Of a stretch of DNA of 64,000 nucleotides, positions 6,078 to 52,404 are shown piece by piece. Both the position numbers and the translations under genes were made by a program. This DNA is from an uncultured Fibrobacterota bacterium. Lineage in GTDB: Bacteria; Fibrobacterota; Chitinivibrionia; Chitinivibrionales; FEN-1185. The number at the start of each line of letters is the position of its first letter. The stretch's first letter is position 1. Location: assembly GCA_963753345.1 (NCBI GenBank), contig CAVWBU010000016.1, positions 32,001-96,000 of the forward strand. Reading direction: 5' to 3'. The notes beneath the pieces were generated by a model. It was not told the origin of the DNA and ran no database searches. It saw only the letters and a list, made by a program, of their open reading frames with translations.

Positions 6078-7394
6078 CTACAAAATATTCGCTGCCAACT
6101 CCGATAAAAGCGACCGTTCCCCTTTGGTAAGCGTCACGTGCGCCGCGATTTCCTGCGCCTTGAACTTCTCCACCACATAGGTAAGGCCGTTGCTCGACGA
6201 GTCTATGTACGGATTGTCAATCTGATACGGGTCGCCGGTGAGCACGATCTTTGTCCCGTCGCCCACCCGCGTAATGATGGTTTTTATCTCGTGGGGCGTG
6301 AGGTTCTGCGCCTCGTCCACGATCAGATACTGGTTGTGGATGGACCTTCCCCGGATGTACGTGAGCGGCTCGATGATCAGGATGCCCGTGTCCATGAGCT
6401 CCTTGAACCCCCGGATATGCCGCCTCGCCTTGGCCTCGCTCCGCAGGAGCAGGTCCACGTTGTCGATAATGGGATACATCCACGGCGTGAGCTTTTCTTC
6501 CACGGTCCCCGGCAGAAACCCGATGTCCTTGCCCATGGGAAGCGTGGGACGTGACACAAGGATCCGCGAAAACAGGTTTTCGTCGATCGTCTTGTTGAGG
6601 CTTGCCGCAACCGCAAGCAGTGTCTTGCCGGTGCCCGCCTTTCCCACCAGCGTCACGAGCTGAATGGCGTCGTTGAGAAGGGCGTCCATGGTGAACAGCT
6701 GTTCGCTGTTGCGCGGTTTGATCCGGAACATGCCTTCCCTGCCCTCGGAAATGAGCCGGACGATCTTCCTCTCCTTTGCGTCGAATCGGCCCATTGCGAA
6801 ATGAGAAGGGTCCGCGCCGTCCGCGAGCGTGACGTACTGGTTCGGAAAGAAATCGCCCTGCACCTCGCAAACGCCCTTCTCGCGAAGCGCGTCCACGGTT
6901 GCCGCGTCGGCGGCCACGCGGGTGTAGCCGGAGTAAAGTTCCTCTATGTCAACCTTGTCGGACTCATAGTCCTCGACCACCACGCCGAGCGCGTCCGCCT
7001 TGATCCGGAGGTTGATGTCCTTGCTCACGAACACGGTCGGCGTGGCGCCCGCTCTTTCTTTCACCGCAAGGGTGATGGCGAGAATGAAATTGTCGCGGGG
7101 CTTTTCCTGAAACTCTCGGGGAATCCGGCGCACCGCCTCGGCATCGCTGAGCGTGACGAAAAGGGTGCCGCCGTTCTCAAGCTTCACCCCCTTCGTAAGT
7201 GACCCGCGTTTACGAAGCGCATCGAGGTAACGCGATGTCTGGCGGGCATTTCTGCCCGTCTCGCTAACGTCTTTCTTGAAGTGGTCGATGTCTTCGATCA
7301 CGGTGATCGGTATAATCACATTGTTGTCTTCAAAATTGAACAGCGCGTGAGCGTCGTAAAGAAGGACGGTGGTGTCAAGAATGAAGTTTTTCAT
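6078..7394 (-). CDS. PhoH family protein (PIN domain + PhoH ATPase, PhoH2 type)
   Basis: N-terminal ILDT PIN start; GKAGTGKT; YIRGRS; IVDEAQN; GDPYQID. Confidence 0.93.
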   Translation of the reverse strand: MKNFILDTTVLLYDAHALFNFEDNNVIIPITVIEDIDHFKKDVSETGRNARQTSRYLDALRKRGSLTKGVKLENGGTLFVTLSDAEAVRRIPREFQEKPRDNFILAITLAVKERAGATPTVFVSKDINLRIKADALGVVVEDYESDKVDIEELYSGYTRVAADAATVDALREKGVCEVQGDFFPNQYVTLADGADPSHFAMGRFDAKERKIVRLISEGREGMFRIKPRNSEQLFTMDALLNDAIQLVTLVGKAGTGKTLLAVAASLNKTIDENLFSRILVSRPTLPMGKDIGFLPGTVEEKLTPWMYPIIDNVDLLLRSEAKARRHIRGFKELMDTGILIIEPLTYIRGRSIHNQYLIVDEAQNLTPHEIKTIITRVGDGTKIVLTGDPYQIDNPYIDSSSNGLTYVVEKFKAQEIAAHVTLTKGERSLLSELAANIL

Positions 7395-28878: not shown

Positions 28879-29028
28879 GGGGGAAGTTTCCCCCTCGCTT
28901 CAGCCCGGCGCGCTTCCATATATTTTTGCTTATTGTCAACCGCGCCCCAGTCTTTCGCTACCCCCTCCTGGGTGCACCCCAAGTGGGGCCGGTTGCAAGA
29001 ATCAAACACCCGTGTGGGGGCACCCGAG
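28879..29028 (+). repeat. Structured intergenic repeat family B, copy 2
   Basis: Collinear with 27097-27245, with a variable AT-rich internal loop. Confidence 0.8.
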
Positions 29029-29137
29029 TAGAGTAGTTGAAGAGTTGAAACGTTGAATAGTTTCAAGAAGGAAAATTGATCCTTTAAATGAGGTTTCGAG
29101 CCAGCGCAATAGTCAACTTGACCGAATAGATTTCTTT

Positions 29138-47657: not shown

Positions 47658-48951
47658 ATGAACAGGCTCATGCTCGTTTCTCTCGCGGCACTCTCCTTTG
47701 TCATCTTGCCCGCCAACGCACGGACGATTCTCGTAGGTCCTTCCCGCACTTACAAAACTCCCTGCGATGCTTCAAGCGCGGTGCAGACCGGGGATACCGT
47801 TCAAATCGACACCGGCACCTACCTTGACCAGGCCTGCATCTGGGCAATGAGCAACACGGTCATCCGCGGGGCAACGGAATTCGCGCACCTCAAGGCGCCC
47901 GCCGTCATTCCAAACCAGAAGGCGATCCTTGTTATAAGCGGCAGCAACACCACCGTGGAGAACATCGAGTTTTCCAACGCGAGCGTTCCCGACCAGAACG
48001 GCGCGGGCATACGCCAGGAAGGCAGCAACGTGACCATCCGCCACTGCTACTTTCACAATTGCGAAGACGGCATTCTCGGCGGCAGCGGCAACGTGCTCAT
48101 CGAATATTCGGAGTTTGACTCCTGCGGCTTCGGCGACGGGTACAGCCACAACATGTACATTTCGGCCTGCGACACCTTCACGCTCAGGTTTTGCTACACC
48201 CACCGAGCGGATGAAGGGCACACAGTCAAGAGCAGAGCATTTCGCAATTACATTTTGTACAACCGCATCGCCTCGGAAAACAGCACCACCAGCTACGAAA
48301 TCAATCTTCCCAATGCGGGAACTTCATTTATAATAGGCAACCTGATACAGCAGGGACCGAACTCCGACAACTCGGCCATTATCGACTACGGCTCCGAAGG
48401 CCTTGCAAGCCACGACACCGCGCTCTACGTTGTCAACAACACCATCGTGAACGACCGCGGCTCGGGAACGTTCATCTCCATTTCCAATACCTCCAACCAG
48501 CCGAAGGTGTACAACAATTTCTTCGTGGGCGGCGGCACGGTGTGCACCCGGCAGATGGATTCGGCCGCGAACATCGTCACCAACACGCCGGCGTTCGTCG
48601 ACAGGGCGAATTACGATTACCACCTCACCTCGGCTTCGCCCGGGATCGACAAGGGAGCGAATCCGGGGAGTGTGGGAAGTTTCTCACTTGCGCCCGTGTT
48701 CCAATACGTTTACAATTGTTCAGGAGAGGCGCGGACGGTTGATTGGCAGCGCGCTTGACGTGGGGGCATTGGAGTTCGGAAGCGCGAGCACGTTGACATT
48801 TCGGCAACCGGTGATGATGACCAAGGGCCGAAAGGCATTCACGCTTGGAACTGATCCGGTGTATGATGTTCTTGGGAGGAGCATGCCGAAGGATATTGGA
48901 CACGGTCATGAAATTGCGAGGCAGATTGGGGTTGTGGAGGAGAATAAGTAG
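47658..48951 (+). CDS. Secreted right-handed beta-helix repeat protein, with a frameshift at about 48743
   Basis: Signal peptide; VPDQNGAGIR; HNMY; KSRA; DYHL...SPGIDKG; the expected DVGALE motif lies in the +1 frame (ORF 48670-48951). Confidence 0.78.
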
Positions 48952-49298
48952 AGCAGGAGCATGCAGGCGTGAGGATATGATACAAAGGAAATACAAGAGT
49001 AAATCAAAACCAAAATCAAGATATGGAAAGGGCTCTGCCCTTTAGATCCCGCTGGGAAAATGCTTATCAGGATCCCCCACCCACCTCCCCCGGGGGAGGC
49101 TTTGACGGGTACAGCTTCCAGGACAACAATATAGGGAGCGGGATGATTGTGGATCAACCAATGCCAAGACGAGTATTCTCAAACCACACTCCTTGTTCGG
49201 ATTCAACCAGGTCAAACATTCGAGACCAATAAAGAAAAGGTAGAAACGTGAGACGGATGAGATACCTTATTGGGGTGAAAAGTTTATCCTGCGCCTAG

Positions 49299-49796
49299 TT
49301 CGTGTTCAATTGCCGTTTGTTAACTGACTAATAATTATATTCACGAGCGGGAAAAGACGAGATTTAGGATTGAATGTCTAAACTTATAGCCGCTCGCGAA
49401 TGAATTAAATCCGTTTTGCGCATGAAAGCACCGCCATGCTGGCGGTGCGAAAGGCAATAAAACAAATCTAAACACCCAGCGCAATTCGCATCCGCGAACT
49501 GCGCCCAACCTGCACATGGCCGTCATTCCATTGCTCAATGGAACAACGCCATCCGGGTTAAAATGGCTGAAATATAATTGCTAAAATAGAATTAATTGAG
49601 GATGTAATAACTGTGCGCAAAACGGTTAAGGAATAAGAAACAAACGGCAACTCGGGGCCGAATTTGGCCCCGCCCTTTGCCTCACCGCAATGTACCGCAA
49701 GACGGGGAACACAACAGCCGCAGCACAAAAGCGCGGCTGACCTGTCGGATTGTTGAATGTATTGATAGGCCGCGTCTTTGTGCAATGCGGCGCACG
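49299..49796 (+). mobile_element. Putative non-coding gene cassette 1
   Basis: Follows G|TTCGTGTTCAATTGCCGTTTGTT, which is complementary to AACAAACGGCAA (49639-49650) and GAACAC-AAC (49707-49715); ends in attC-like site 1. Confidence 0.55.
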
Positions 49797-49802
49797 TTCG
49801 TG
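49709..49802 (+). mobile_element. attC-like recombination site 1
   Basis: ACACAAC...GTTCGTG flanking a long imperfect hairpin (GCCGCA/TGCGGC, GCACAAA/TTTGTGC, CGCGGC/GCCGCG). Confidence 0.6.
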
Positions 49803-50042
49803 CAAAATTGCTGGCTTGCCCAGAATCTATTCTTGCGTTTTTCATTTCTTGTACTCATCAATACCGAATAAATATTTAACATCTCAAAACAAATCTCATT
49901 TGAGAAGTCGTATCTCACTTTAATTCAATATGTTATAAATACACAGAAACAATGTTGATAGAATAATAGTTTATCATGAAAAAGGAATGTGCCGAAAAAT
50001 AGCTGTAAAATGCGATATTCTTCAACTTCTCATAAATAATTC

Positions 50043-50071
50043 TTGCAACTTTTCTATTTTGAGATTATATT
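50043..50071 (+). promoter_or_regulatory. Putative sigma-70 promoter inside cassette 2
   Basis: TTGCAA-17 nt-TATATT, upstream of the AGGAGG RBS of the ORF at 50115. Confidence 0.6.
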
Positions 50072-50114
50072 ATTCAAGGAAGGATAAATTTAAATAATCA
50101 TCTTAGGAGGCAAG

Positions 50115-50816
50115 ATGGCCAAGATACCTCAAATCCCATCATATCCATTGGGACAGTGTTTTGAAGATGTAAGAAAGATTTATGACCAATATTCACATGC
50201 CACTTTTAGCAGAGCAGAAGTAGCGAATGCGTTGGGATATTCAGCTAGTTCGGGTCCTTTTGGAAGCAGGATGGCATCATTTAGGGTCTACAACTTGCTA
50301 GAAGAGAAGGATGGTGGTTATAAAGCAACAGATTTGTTCAAAGCCCTGAAAATCACTCAGAAAGGCACTCCAGAATTTAGTCAGTATTCCATTCAAGCCA
50401 TTAAGAGCTCAGCCCTTTTCGAAGAAATTTTAAGCGAATTCCGCCATAAAATTCCAGAAATGAAGATCTTGTCCCAGAGACTTGAAATCCAGAAAAAGTT
50501 TTCTGCTGAAAAGGCGAGGGATATCGCCTCCGTTTTCATAGAGTCTCTCAACTTTGCTGGTGTTCTGGATTCAAACAATAATTTCCTTGAGCCTAAAAAA
50601 ACTGACCCTGCAAACGCAAGTCCCTCAATAAGTATCTCAAGCCGGAGAGCCAACGATACTCAGGGTGGTTTAGATTCAAGCGTTACTGCTGGAAATAGCC
50701 TGCAAATTGAAATTGCACTGGCTAACAACAGAATAGCAAGGGTGGTCTATCCAAGAGACATTTCAAAAGATGATGCTGCTAAAATCGGAAATGTGTTAGG
50801 CGCAATAGCGGGATAG
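50115..50816 (+). CDS. Hypothetical protein, predicted winged-helix-like N-terminus
   Basis: AGGAGG RBS; SRAEVANALGYSASSGPFGSRMASFRVYNLLE HTH-like segment; AT-rich. Confidence 0.75.
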   Translation: MAKIPQIPSYPLGQCFEDVRKIYDQYSHATFSRAEVANALGYSASSGPFGSRMASFRVYNLLEEKDGGYKATDLFKALKITQKGTPEFSQYSIQAIKSSALFEEILSEFRHKIPEMKILSQRLEIQKKFSAEKARDIASVFIESLNFAGVLDSNNNFLEPKKTDPANASPSISISSRRANDTQGGLDSSVTAGNSLQIEIALANNRIARVVYPRDISKDDAAKIGNVLGAIAG

Positions 50817-50825
50817 GGAGCAAAA

Positions 50826-51326
50826 ATGGAAAAAGTAAATTTTGCATTCATTGATGGTCAAAACCTGAATCTTGGAATTCAACGCCTTGGTTGGAAACTG
50901 GATCTAAAAAGGTTCCGTATATATTTGAAAGAAAAATATGGGATTTCAAAGGCTTACTATTTTATTGGCTATCTCCCTGAAAACCAAAATCTTTATAAAT
51001 CCCTTCAGGAATTCGGATACGTTTTGATTTTCAAGCCTACAATGAAAACCCCTGACGGGAAAATCAAAGGGAACTGTGATGCCGAACTTGTTCTTCAGGC
51101 TATGATTGATTTTCCACATTATGACAAAGCCGTAATTGTGACCAGTGACGGAGATTTCAGTTGTTTAGTTGAATATTTCTATAGACAAAACAAACTGGAA
51201 GTAATCTTGTCTCCCGGCAGGGAGCACTGCTCAAGCTTGCTAAGAAAAGCGGGGAGAGAAAAGATTCAATTTTTGGACGATTTGAGGAATAAACTCGAGT
51301 TTCTAAAAGAAAAAGCACCGCTATAG
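50826..51326 (+). CDS. NYN (LabA/DUF88, PIN-like) domain ribonuclease
   Basis: FIDGQNL; KGNCDAELV; IVTSDGDFS; SSLLR. Confidence 0.9.
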   Translation: MEKVNFAFIDGQNLNLGIQRLGWKLDLKRFRIYLKEKYGISKAYYFIGYLPENQNLYKSLQEFGYVLIFKPTMKTPDGKIKGNCDAELVLQAMIDFPHYDKAVIVTSDGDFSCLVEYFYRQNKLEVILSPGREHCSSLLRKAGREKIQFLDDLRNKLEFLKEKAPL

Positions 51327-51363
51327 GACGAAACCTATAGAAGTGCCTTTTCATCGTAATCTT
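51305..51363 (-). ncRNA. Predicted small antisense RNA overlapping the NYN gene 3' end
   Basis: Minus-strand promoter TTGAAT(51398-51393)-17-TATATT(51375-51370), then a hairpin (51310-51351) and a U-rich tail. Confidence 0.45.
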
Positions 51364-51437
51364 ACTTTTAATATACGCCTTTCTTCGCCAAAATTCAAGC
51401 TCTTTCATTGCCATTGATGTCCTGAGCCAGCAACAAT

Positions 51438-51563
51438 GCACAACAGCCACGTTACGCAAGGCCCTTCGGGCACATGGCCAGCGTTTGAATAAGACGTGTC
51501 ATGTCGCTTTGCTCCGTCACGTTTTCTAACGCTGGCCACGTCGTAACACGGCAAACGTTGAGC
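51438..51563 (+). mobile_element. attC-like recombination site 2
   Basis: GCACAAC...GTTGAGC (fits GTTRRRY); stems GTTACG/CGTAAC, TGGCCAGCGTT/AACGCTGGCCA, ACGTG/CACGT; side hairpin GCCC-TTC-GGGC. Confidence 0.7.
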
Positions 51564-51682
51564 TTTTCATTCACTCACATGCCATCCAGATCCGTAATAA
51601 TGAACTACAATGAGCAATAAAGGAGTCCCCATGCTTCATCACCCTCTACCTTTTATCAACAACCTGATCCCCTAACGCTCCC

Positions 51683-52404
51683 ATGAGACTTCTCTTCCTC
51701 CTGATCCCGCTTTCCTTTCTTTATTCAATATGCTGGCCCCAGGAACCTGCTGCTGTTTCTCGGAACAGCGTTTTCCCGGTAGTGATCATTGTTTCCACAA
51801 CCGGAACATCGATCTCATGGTTCTCGGCACCATTGGCGCCGCCCACGCGCGCAATCCCCATTTCACCTGGGCGCATCTCGATTCCCTGCTGCAGCGAATC
51901 GCCCCGGAGCTGCTTCTGGTGCAGATCCGTCCCGACCATTGTGACAAACAGGAATTCTTCGACGGCGCGCCCGACATGGCGTATCTGGCGCACGCCGCTC
52001 AGAAAATGAAGATTGAATGCCGCGGCATCGACTGGTGGCTCGACATGCAGATCGTGAATTGGGACAAGGTGGACCCAAAAGAGCGGATCGGACATATCAA
52101 TGAGAACATACGCAACGTCCTCGGTTCAACGCGCGCCCAAATGATCCTTATCGCCGTCGACCTGTCGTTCGTGGATTCGGTCCGCAACTGCCTGATCCTC
52201 GACAGCCTCAGGGAATGGACCTGTCCGCAGACCCGGTTCGCCCTTGCGAAGCCCTCCGACCTCCCGCCCGAAACGATCGACTTCTTCAGGGACGGAATGG
52301 TGTACCTGTCGTATTTGCCCTATGCCAGTGCCGCACCAGTGCAAAAGAAAATCAATGATCTGCGCGAGATTGTAAAAGGCAAGGGATATTGTTTCGAGCG
52401 TTGA
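51683..52404 (+). CDS. Exported hypothetical protein, split by a frameshift at about 51737-51762
   Basis: Signal peptide is in ORF 51683; the body (VLGTIGAAH...PELLLVQIRP...GIDWW) is in ORF 51730-52404. Confidence 0.55.

Follow-up and report, generated by a model that had tools for sequence, protein, structure and literature searches.

A recombinase-free array of two mobile cassettes in a Fibrobacterota genome and its likely link to a Xer-like recombinase clade lacking the IntI insertions

The window analysed here is a stretch of 64,000 nucleotides from an uncultured Fibrobacterota bacterium (assembly GCA_963753345.1, contig CAVWBU010000016.1, positions 32,001 to 96,000); the genome that holds it is called G000 below and its contig C16, 41 genomes were compared as relatives, and G001 is of the same genus as the window genome. 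Between positions 49300 and 51560 of the window the G+C fraction is 0.30-0.45, compared with 0.55-0.60 in the flanks, and this low-GC island is made of two tandem cassettes on the plus strand, each carrying its own attC-like hairpin at the 3' end. Cassette 1 (49299..49796, + strand) is 498 bp long, contains no open reading frame (ORF) and has a highly structured interior. Cassette 2 (49797..51557, + strand) is 1761 bp long and carries two genes. The first of these (50115..50816, + strand) codes for a protein of 233 amino acids with no match in Pfam, NCBIfam or PADLOC, and the second (50826..51326, + strand) for a protein of 166 amino acids that is an NYN-domain (LabA-like) nuclease (Pfam PF01936, 59.6 bits; PADLOC NYN, 33 bits). 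To the left lies the remnant of a putative attI-like insertion site (49268..49298, + strand), which ends in the crossover G at 49298. With two sites 1.7 kb apart on a contig free of any tyrosine-recombinase match, the locus qualifies as a cluster of attC sites lacking integron-integrase (CALIN), and it is not a complete IntI-based integron, as no integrase with the IntI-specific domain is adjacent. An earlier note on this DNA, made from the letters alone, had seen no recombinase in the 64 kb, and indeed none of the 12 tyrosine-recombinase matches of G000 lies on C16; the coordinates and letters of that note all agree with the sequence.

Both hairpins have the attC layout, that is, an imperfect hairpin of 50-150 nt whose R'' box ends in AAC and whose R' box starts with GTT. 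Site 1 (49707..49802, + strand), which represents family 1, measures about 86 nt from AAC to GTT, with GAACACAAC as R'' and GTTCGTG as R', and its stem contains an AA bulge, a 1x1 mismatch and an unpaired spacer of 1 nt on one side versus 4 nt on the other. Site 2 (51437..51563, + strand) represents family 2 and measures about 119 nt, with TGCACAAC as R'' and GTTGAGC as R'. Folded as single strands and compared with shuffled sequences, hairpin 1 has a z score of -2.1 on both strands, and hairpin 2 of -3.1 on the plus and -4.2 on the minus strand. The common opening and closing letters that the earlier note had seen in the two hairpins were both recovered: CACAACAGCC has exactly two occurrences in the window, at 49710 and 51439, and CGTT closes the hairpins at 49795-49798 and 51556-51559. 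When one mismatch is allowed, CACAACAGCC has seven matches in the window for 3.94 expected, a number reached by 10 of 100 shuffles and therefore no enrichment; genome-wide, 308 such matches are spread evenly with no contig enriched, which makes this motif unsuitable as a lone probe.

The R' boxes deserve separate mention. GTTGAGC of site 2 fits the GTTRRRY consensus, and GTTCGTG of site 1 and of the left junction does not, and in most related sites the bases after GTTG vary. The unpaired C after GTT, which had been described as a property of both units, is real at the left junction of unit 1 and at hairpin 1, but as a general trait it did not hold: in a hand count of the base after GTT in 28 related sites, GTTG was found 24 times, GTTA three times and GTTC once, this single case being hairpin 1 of the window. 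Because of this count, and because both window cassettes have similar ends within the common frame GTTCGTGnnnAATTGCyG, we take the C to be peculiar to a related cassette pair and not to be a trait of the system.

The two units are discrete mobile cassettes exchanged at G|TT, and their boundaries, their recent mobility and turnover at the same site can be followed in copies and in relatives. A BLAST search of the island against its own genome yielded a copy of cassette 1 with 99.6% identity at G000:C15:178981-179483, which covers window positions 49296-49798 only and has other flanks (gatgtaG|TTCGTG... on one side and ...GCGCACG|TTGTGGTCAATTC on the other). Similarly, contig C27 holds a 99.7% copy of 50797-51560, comprising the NYN gene and hairpin 2, and there the hairpin is followed by GTTGTGGGTC, the start of a SoFic-like cassette that closes in a family-1 hairpin. 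The left boundary of cassette 2 is given by the end of the identity with the cassette 1 duplicate, and its right boundary by the end of the C27 identity at 51560. In G001 the flanks are 85% identical to those of the window, and another two-gene cassette with a family-1 attC lies between the same junctions. Public metagenome contigs have differing sequence after 49798 and after 51557/51560; a homologue of cassette 1 with about 90% identity, in a peat metagenome contig, spans exactly 49298-49798, and a cassette-free joint, linking 49234 to 51723 through 108 other letters, is present in public contigs from two runs of two studies. As the breaks in the duplicates, in G001 and in the metagenome contigs all fall at them, the three G|TT crossovers that the earlier note had placed at 49298, 49796 and 51557 are confirmed; the empty or alternative site that it had suggested looking for in relatives was also found, G001 carrying another cassette and the metagenome joint carrying neither. 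The cargo of sister cassettes includes SoFic and a restriction-modification pair, and passages of a preprint report defence-type cargo for chromosomal integrons (bioRxiv 10.1101/2024.07.02.601686).

Covariance models built without the window copies, R1 from seven family-1 sites and R2 from ten family-2 sites, detect the window hairpins with high scores (R1 on site 1, 89.3 bits, E 2e-23; R2 on site 2, 138.4 bits, E 8e-36), and compensatory changes are present in 8 of the 22 stem pairs of family 1. Fragments of both hairpins match many relatives. When the 41 genomes were scanned, R1 gave 29 matches in 11 genomes and R2 gave 22 matches in nine genomes; R1 also cross-detects other site types within recombinase-linked arrays. 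The earlier reading of the units as cassettes had been made to depend on similar hairpins occurring elsewhere in the genome, and further R1/R2 matches are indeed present in G000 on C15, C27 and C24 and at C16:13124. The last of these is a lone family-2-like site outside the window (G000:C16:13124-13298, 57 bits), a short distance downstream of a gene, and its right neighbour recurs as a loose end in public contigs. An energy-based hairpin scan was dropped in favour of the covariance models, being noisy and having overlooked hairpin 2.

In both window units the 5' end is complementary to the unit's own R'' with one bulged C, and the complementarity extends beyond this box. The 5' end boxes of cassette 1 (49298..49321, + strand) consist of GTT, the unpaired C, GTGTTC, a gap of 2 nt and an outer box of 12 nt. 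They are complementary to 49707-49715 and to an outer 3' box (49639..49650, + strand), the latter matching 49310-49321 in 12 of 12 nt; 56 nt separate this outer 3' box from the R'' box and contain a GC-rich hairpin (49653-49672). The 3' end boxes of cassette 2 (51425..51444, + strand), made of a 9-nt outer box, a 3-nt gap, TGCAC and AAC, are complementary to 49796-49816. The end complementarity that had been noticed in both units was thus recovered at the same positions, and its continuation past the core, then regarded as unusual, turns out to be real, cassette-specific and typical of a whole class of cassettes. For this comparison, the 45 nt from the 5' GTT, less the first 9 nt, were matched to the 45 nt up to the AAC of the same cassette, taken as reverse complement. 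Among 21 cassettes of the window class, own ends scored 10.9 on average (median 11), compared with 5.9 for the ends of different cassettes (sd 1.4, 95th percentile 9), and cassette 2 of the window scored 9. The control was the canonical IntI array of contig C18 of the same genome, presented below, where the own ends of 16 cassettes scored 5.4 and other ends 5.6. The pairing has a block layout, with an R box of 7-9 nt, a bubble of 3-4 nt whose 5' side is usually CAAT or AAAT, a second box (8-13 nt) and, in many cases, a GC-rich third box about 15 nt further on. In a nine-site array of another relative (G007:C332), the R' of a site is complementary to the R'' of the next site in seven of the eight consecutive pairs, as read from the listing of sites. 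The sequences of the boxes vary between cassettes and yet are complementary within each of them, which argues for selection on the pairing itself.

The left boundary of the array is, by its sequence, a degenerate copy of an attI-like site and not a random secondary site. The letters before the crossover, ...gaaaagtttatcctgcgcctaG|TT, are those that precede TAG|TTG after a recombinase gene in G002:C40 and in the metagenome locus L170, and G001 carries the same pre-crossover sequence at the window's locus. A strong hairpin (z -6.5 to -6.8), with this stretch as its right arm, is formed in G002, L170 and G001. The 70 nt upstream of the crossover have a fold z score of +0.39 in the window, -6.5 in G001 and -6.8 in G002, the window being short of about 38 nt to which the left arm of the G001 hairpin belongs, and the recombinase gene is absent at this locus from both the window and G001. 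The nine-site array on G007:C332 is comparable, as it also starts without a recombinase. Subclades of the recombinase match types of insertion site, and the type found in the window goes with the subclade of G002, L170, L172 and the C24 copy of G000. In G005, neither a site nor a cassette follows the gene of the left flank, and the right flank is found on a different contig.

The recombinase in question was met through the C15 copy of cassette 1, which is the first cassette after a gene for a tyrosine recombinase of 474 amino acids and lies on the same strand, 115 nt past its stop codon. G000 contains two copies of this gene with 99.8% identity (G000:C15:179599-181020 and G000:C25:120-1541), and contig C25 breaks at the crossover of the site, which suggests either two platforms or population variants with differing first cassettes. 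On C24, a 40% homologue is followed by a site ending in GGGTAG|TTGGCTGCAAT and then by five hairpin sites. Homologues at E <= 1e-40 are present in 16 of the 41 relatives, many of them 120-250 nt from a contig end on the 3' side. Downstream of the recombinase gene and in its orientation, sites of family 1 or 2 or R1 cross-detections are found in G000:C24 (5 sites), G002:C40, G004:C32 and G006:C103 and in the metagenome loci L170 and L177/L178; in G006, for example, a restriction-modification cassette comes after the recombinase and closes in a family-2 site. In 13 of 19 downstream regions of relatives inspected by eye, a cassette-like start comes directly after [T/G]AG|TTG or TG|TTG. Moreover, a metagenome scan gave 10 loci, and the site-cassette layout is present in all six in which the gene is nearly full and 300 nt or more follow it. 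L173 and L174 have a common recombinase and site and diverge directly after GGGTTGTTG into different cassettes. The insertion point lies 90-240 nt past the stop codon, often with a hairpin abutting [T/G]AG|TTG, and its distance from the gene stays fixed among homologues that are 36-63% identical. A motif defined post hoc, GTT[GC]N3-6[CA]AAT at most 350 nt downstream, is found at 16 of 24 homologue loci and at 5 of 73 generic recombinase loci, the latter being recombinases from many phyla with 29-46% identity, among the matches listed in a clade alignment search with generic motifs. An Rfam search of the recombinase loci gave no match.

The 474-residue family does not coincide with any of the established classes against which it was scored. 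It reaches 215 bits on XerA_Arch (cut-off 220), 188.5 on the IntI model TIGR02249 (cut-off 265), 171.6 on XerC (cut-off 335) and 160 on XerD (cut-off 330). The clade falls outside IntI by its score under the TIGR02249 cut-off and by the lack of the insertion near patch III, and outside the XerC/XerD resolvases by its sub-cut-off scores and by its presence in three copies in G000 rather than as a single housekeeping gene. Two insertions in the catalytic domain, of 27 and 14 amino acids, are found in three IntIs of this group and are absent from all 11 aligned clade members, in which the catalytic residues do not vary. When 48 recombinases were placed in a quick maximum-likelihood tree, one clade was formed by 19 of the 20 homologues (Shimodaira-Hasegawa-like approximate likelihood ratio test, SH-aLRT, 97) and another by the 12 IntI sequences (12/12, SH-aLRT 99), both apart from the Xer-like genes of the host. 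From this tree we read no derivation of the clade from IntI or the reverse. The nearest cluster of the recombinase in a protein atlas is commonest in Fibrobacterota. Cassettes of the window's type do lie next to this recombinase clade, and this adjacency makes the clade without IntI insertions, and not the canonical IntI, the likely mobilising partner of the window cassettes.

G000 harbours in addition a canonical integron. Just one of its recombinases is an IntI above the cut-off (C18:31088-32026; 430.6 and 454 bits in two scorings on TIGR02249, for a cut-off of 265), so that the IntI-like gene which the earlier note had required somewhere in the genome does exist. A crude scan of C18:1-30000 revealed a dense array of AAC-hairpin-GTT units of at least 30 kb, with at least 17 near-identical sites of 127-130 nt and two sites of 86 nt, with GTTAGGN or GTTATGN as R' and oriented divergently from intI. 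In the region C18:1-32026 (L023, L024), the IntI has an N-terminal extension (448-residue open frame), and the contig has a G+C fraction of 0.523, compared with about 0.56 elsewhere. Neither R1 nor R2 has a match on C18:1-40000, which contains the IntI array, even at E values up to 1. The canonical integron of C18 uses another attC family and a cassette pool separate from that of the window. Conversely, G002, which is 96% complete, has a clade recombinase and four R2 matches, and no match to TIGR02249 at E <= 1e-60.

Taken together, it is probable that the window contains an orphan two-cassette array of an integron-like sister system that has its own Xer-like recombinase clade and by which the cassettes would be mobilised in trans. 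The earlier note had offered two readings, a CALIN and a variant cassette system with mobilisation in trans, and the discrete G|TT units, the lack of a local recombinase and the boundaries in G001 and in the metagenomes came out as it predicted. An ordinary CALIN of the canonical integron is the main alternative, if a rather unlikely one: the IntI of C18 would have moved the cassettes in trans to a secondary (attG-like) site, and the Xer-like genes would merely adjoin favoured sites. The IntI of G000 scores far above its cut-off (430.6 bits) and has an array of at least 30 kb, and the hairpins have the general attC succession of AAC, stem, variable loop, stem and GTT. Furthermore, insertion of cassettes by IntI outside att sites is reported in passages of a preprint (bioRxiv 10.1101/2022.09.11.507474), half of the CALINs belong to IntI-encoding genomes according to passages of Cury 2016 (PMC4889954), and in G005 and G033 the sites occur together with an IntI and in the absence of a clade homologue. 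Against such a role of the C18 enzyme, its array, the sole IntI array assembled (C18:1-40000), contains no site of family 1 or 2 nor any cross-detected one, and its cassettes lack the extended end pairing; the insertion point is fixed after the recombinase gene in 13 of the 19 loci from relatives and in all 6 usable metagenome loci, and G002 has the platform and the sites with no detectable IntI.

Two further explanations would dispense with recombination at folded sites or with its need for the long pairing. The hairpins could be copies of an intergenic palindromic repeat of the type of repetitive extragenic palindromes (REP) or miniature inverted-repeat transposable elements (MITE), with the cassettes as genes found between them by chance. 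In many relatives the hairpin families occur scattered and in few copies, and the window genome is rich in other short repeats, but the unit that is duplicated is a cassette with one hairpin (49296-49798) and not a palindrome, the end pairing is cassette-specific, and the R' of one site matches the R'' of the next. Moreover, the left edge of the array has only the right half of the extended palindrome and its right edge only the left half, as the insertion of circles predicts; we regard this explanation as scarcely credible. It is somewhat less far-fetched, and still very improbable, that the end complementarity acts on RNA, forming stems in read-through transcripts for processing or stabilisation while recombination needs the core only. 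Cassettes and recombinase gene lie on the same strand, so that read-through is plausible, and the pairing is retained despite box sequences that differ between cassettes. However, the boxes directly abut the R boxes and extend their helix, as fits a DNA recombination substrate.

A number of points weigh against an integron-like sister system with its own recombinase. The catalytic role that we infer for this clade comes from adjacency alone, and G000 itself encodes an IntI, an enzyme that accepts very diverse attC sites. Two nearly complete genomes, G005 (96%) and G033 (94%), have the sites and an IntI with no clade homologue at E <= 1e-40. Over the 41 genomes, sites of family 1 or 2 (E <= 1e-4) are present in 14, of which nine have a clade homologue (E <= 1e-40) and eight an IntI above the cut-off; with 9/14 versus 8/14, co-occurrence does not separate the two enzymes. 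In G000 there is no recombinase of the exact subclade that goes with the window's insertion site, the nearest being the C24 copy. The clade members L054 and L057 show no downstream site, and only 12 of 21 sites have a strong hairpin (z < -2) ahead of the crossover. Finally, cassette 1 of the window scores only 6 in the 45-nt test of end pairing, because its 12-nt outer box sits 56 nt beyond the reach of the test, and the ends of the first cassette of L170 match over GTTGT only, possibly owing to an undetected intervening site.

Under the favoured interpretation of a sister system with its own recombinase, an intact platform would be composed of the Xer/IntI-like recombinase gene, the insertion site and the cassettes, in this order and on the same strand, with each cassette beginning at the TT of one G|TT crossover, closing with the G of the following one and bearing an attC-like hairpin at its 3' end. 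A clade recombinase provided in trans, from the C15/C25 or C24 copies, would cut G|TT in the folded attC, and the cassette would be freed as a circle and reinserted at an attI-like site. In the excised circle, or in single-stranded DNA of the array, the end boxes would lengthen the attC stem by 20-45 nt, and the lengthened stem would presumably stabilise the folded site. IntI recognises flipped-out bases by means of its insertion. In the clade, from which this insertion is absent, the extended pairing may substitute for such recognition. The identity of the acting enzyme, the folding as single strands and the role of the extended pairing are what we infer here. A broader proposal, to which we give about even weight, is that these loci represent a second, IntI-independent system of cassette capture. 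It would comprise an insertion-less Xer-like clade encoded upstream of the array and in its orientation, an insertion site that in many cases forms a hairpin, an attC-like core CAAC-A-GCC ... GGC-NCAC-GTTG, and cassette-specific end pairing in three blocks that rebuilds a long stem in the circle; it would coexist with a canonical integron while having a separate pool, and would occur in bacteria of peat and freshwater sediment, with hints in Bacteroidota, the window being a decayed platform.

Compared with known systems, the array resembles sedentary chromosomal integrons and CALINs, as these are described in passages of Cury 2016 (PMC4889954), by its tandem cassettes bounded by G|TT, by its 3' hairpins of 86-125 nt, and by the AAC that closes R'' and the GTT that opens R'. 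It is also like them in the cassette 5' end that is complementary to its own R'', in the defence-like cargo and, for the window, in having no nearby integrase. Unlike in chromosomal integrons, the recombinase here lacks the IntI domain of about 35 residues and is co-oriented upstream of the array, the unpaired spacer of the sites is asymmetric (1 nt vs 4 nt) and a conserved NCAC precedes GTT, and the end pairing amounts to 20-45 nt, being absent from the canonical array of the same genome. A recombinase gene on the same strand as the cassettes is likewise a feature of the "inverted integrase" integrons, for example in Treponema. The known integrases of these integrons retain the IntI-specific domain, whereas the clade linked to the window is devoid of it. 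Integrons of this kind are named in passages of Cury 2016 (PMC4889954) and of Ghaly 2022, and in passages of the former, recombinases without the IntI domain near attC sites are judged "not IntI", each having fewer than three sites.

Insertion at attG or other secondary sites, as presented in parts of a preprint (bioRxiv 10.1101/2022.09.11.507474), similarly leads to cassettes away from an integron platform; unlike there, the target in the window is homologous to the site that follows the recombinase, and a relative holds another cassette at it. The DUF1874 motif, according to passages of Weinberg 2017 (PMC5737381), occurs in runs as a recurring structured intergenic element without a 5' integrase and was proposed to be an unusual attC. 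Unlike this motif, the hairpins have no match among the Rfam families, DUF1874 included: the search of window positions 48500-52000, at E values up to 1, gave only two chance microRNA rows far under threshold. In passages of Smyshlyaev 2021 (PMC8138268) on the "Integron-like" subgroup of simple tyrosine recombinases, no members without the insertion are tied to cassette arrays. In addition, archaeal IntIs retain the additional domain (passages of Ghaly 2022), and it is this extra domain that separates IntI from other integrases (passages of Néron 2022). A literature search, outside which lay subscription journals and supplements, found no cassette array described as driven by a recombinase that lacks the IntI domain.

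IntI is the defining component of integrons, and it is the extra domain of this enzyme that is held to permit recombination of folded and poorly conserved attC sites. If the interpretation as a sister system is true, recombination of cassettes at folded hairpins could be older or more widespread than IntI, which bears on the origins of integrons and of attC, and part of the unexplained CALINs may belong to platforms invisible to current tools. The long, cassette-specific end pairing would represent a testable alternative for stabilising or recognising the substrate and could be of use in the design of structure-specific sites, and the two systems of one genome, with their separate cassette pools, would allow a direct comparison.

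Some observations are of more limited scope. A possible counterpart in Bacteroidota (L109) may be represented by a contig of Winogradskyella ursingii with a recombinase of 36% identity, followed 44 nt on by a short hairpin, TTG|TTGTAGCCAAT and a cassette-like start. Two hairpin sites of 123-127 nt lie 2.4 and 4.6 kb downstream there; pairing of cognate ends could not be confirmed at this locus. To the right of the C15 copy of cassette 1, about 47 nt on the minus strand (L019, around 6940-6990) read GTTGTGGTCAATTC...CCGCACACGTT and look like the 5' end of a cassette joined to the last part of a site, so that this may be a collapsed cassette.

The interior of cassette 1 has no plus-strand ORF longer than 64 amino acids, and folds far more stably than shuffled sequences (z -6.5 on the plus and -6.4 on the minus strand). 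Within 49322-49700 there are a 12-nt inverted repeat, its copies 200 nt apart, and the GC-rich hairpin at 49653-49672; no homologue of this interior was found among the relatives. It may represent either a non-coding RNA or a structure of the DNA. Immediately left of the decayed insertion site lies a repeat of about 100 nt (window 49001-49103) that has about 20 copies in G000 by BLAST and further copies in relatives down to order level, with no match in Rfam. Another repeat of about 140 nt, starting with GGGGGAAGTATCCCCC, is present in the window at about 28950-29039 (G000:C16:60950-61039) and at about 190 other places in G000, including upstream of the recombinase genes on C15 and on C25 and to the left of the array on C27, and looks like a generic genomic repeat rather than a component of the platform.

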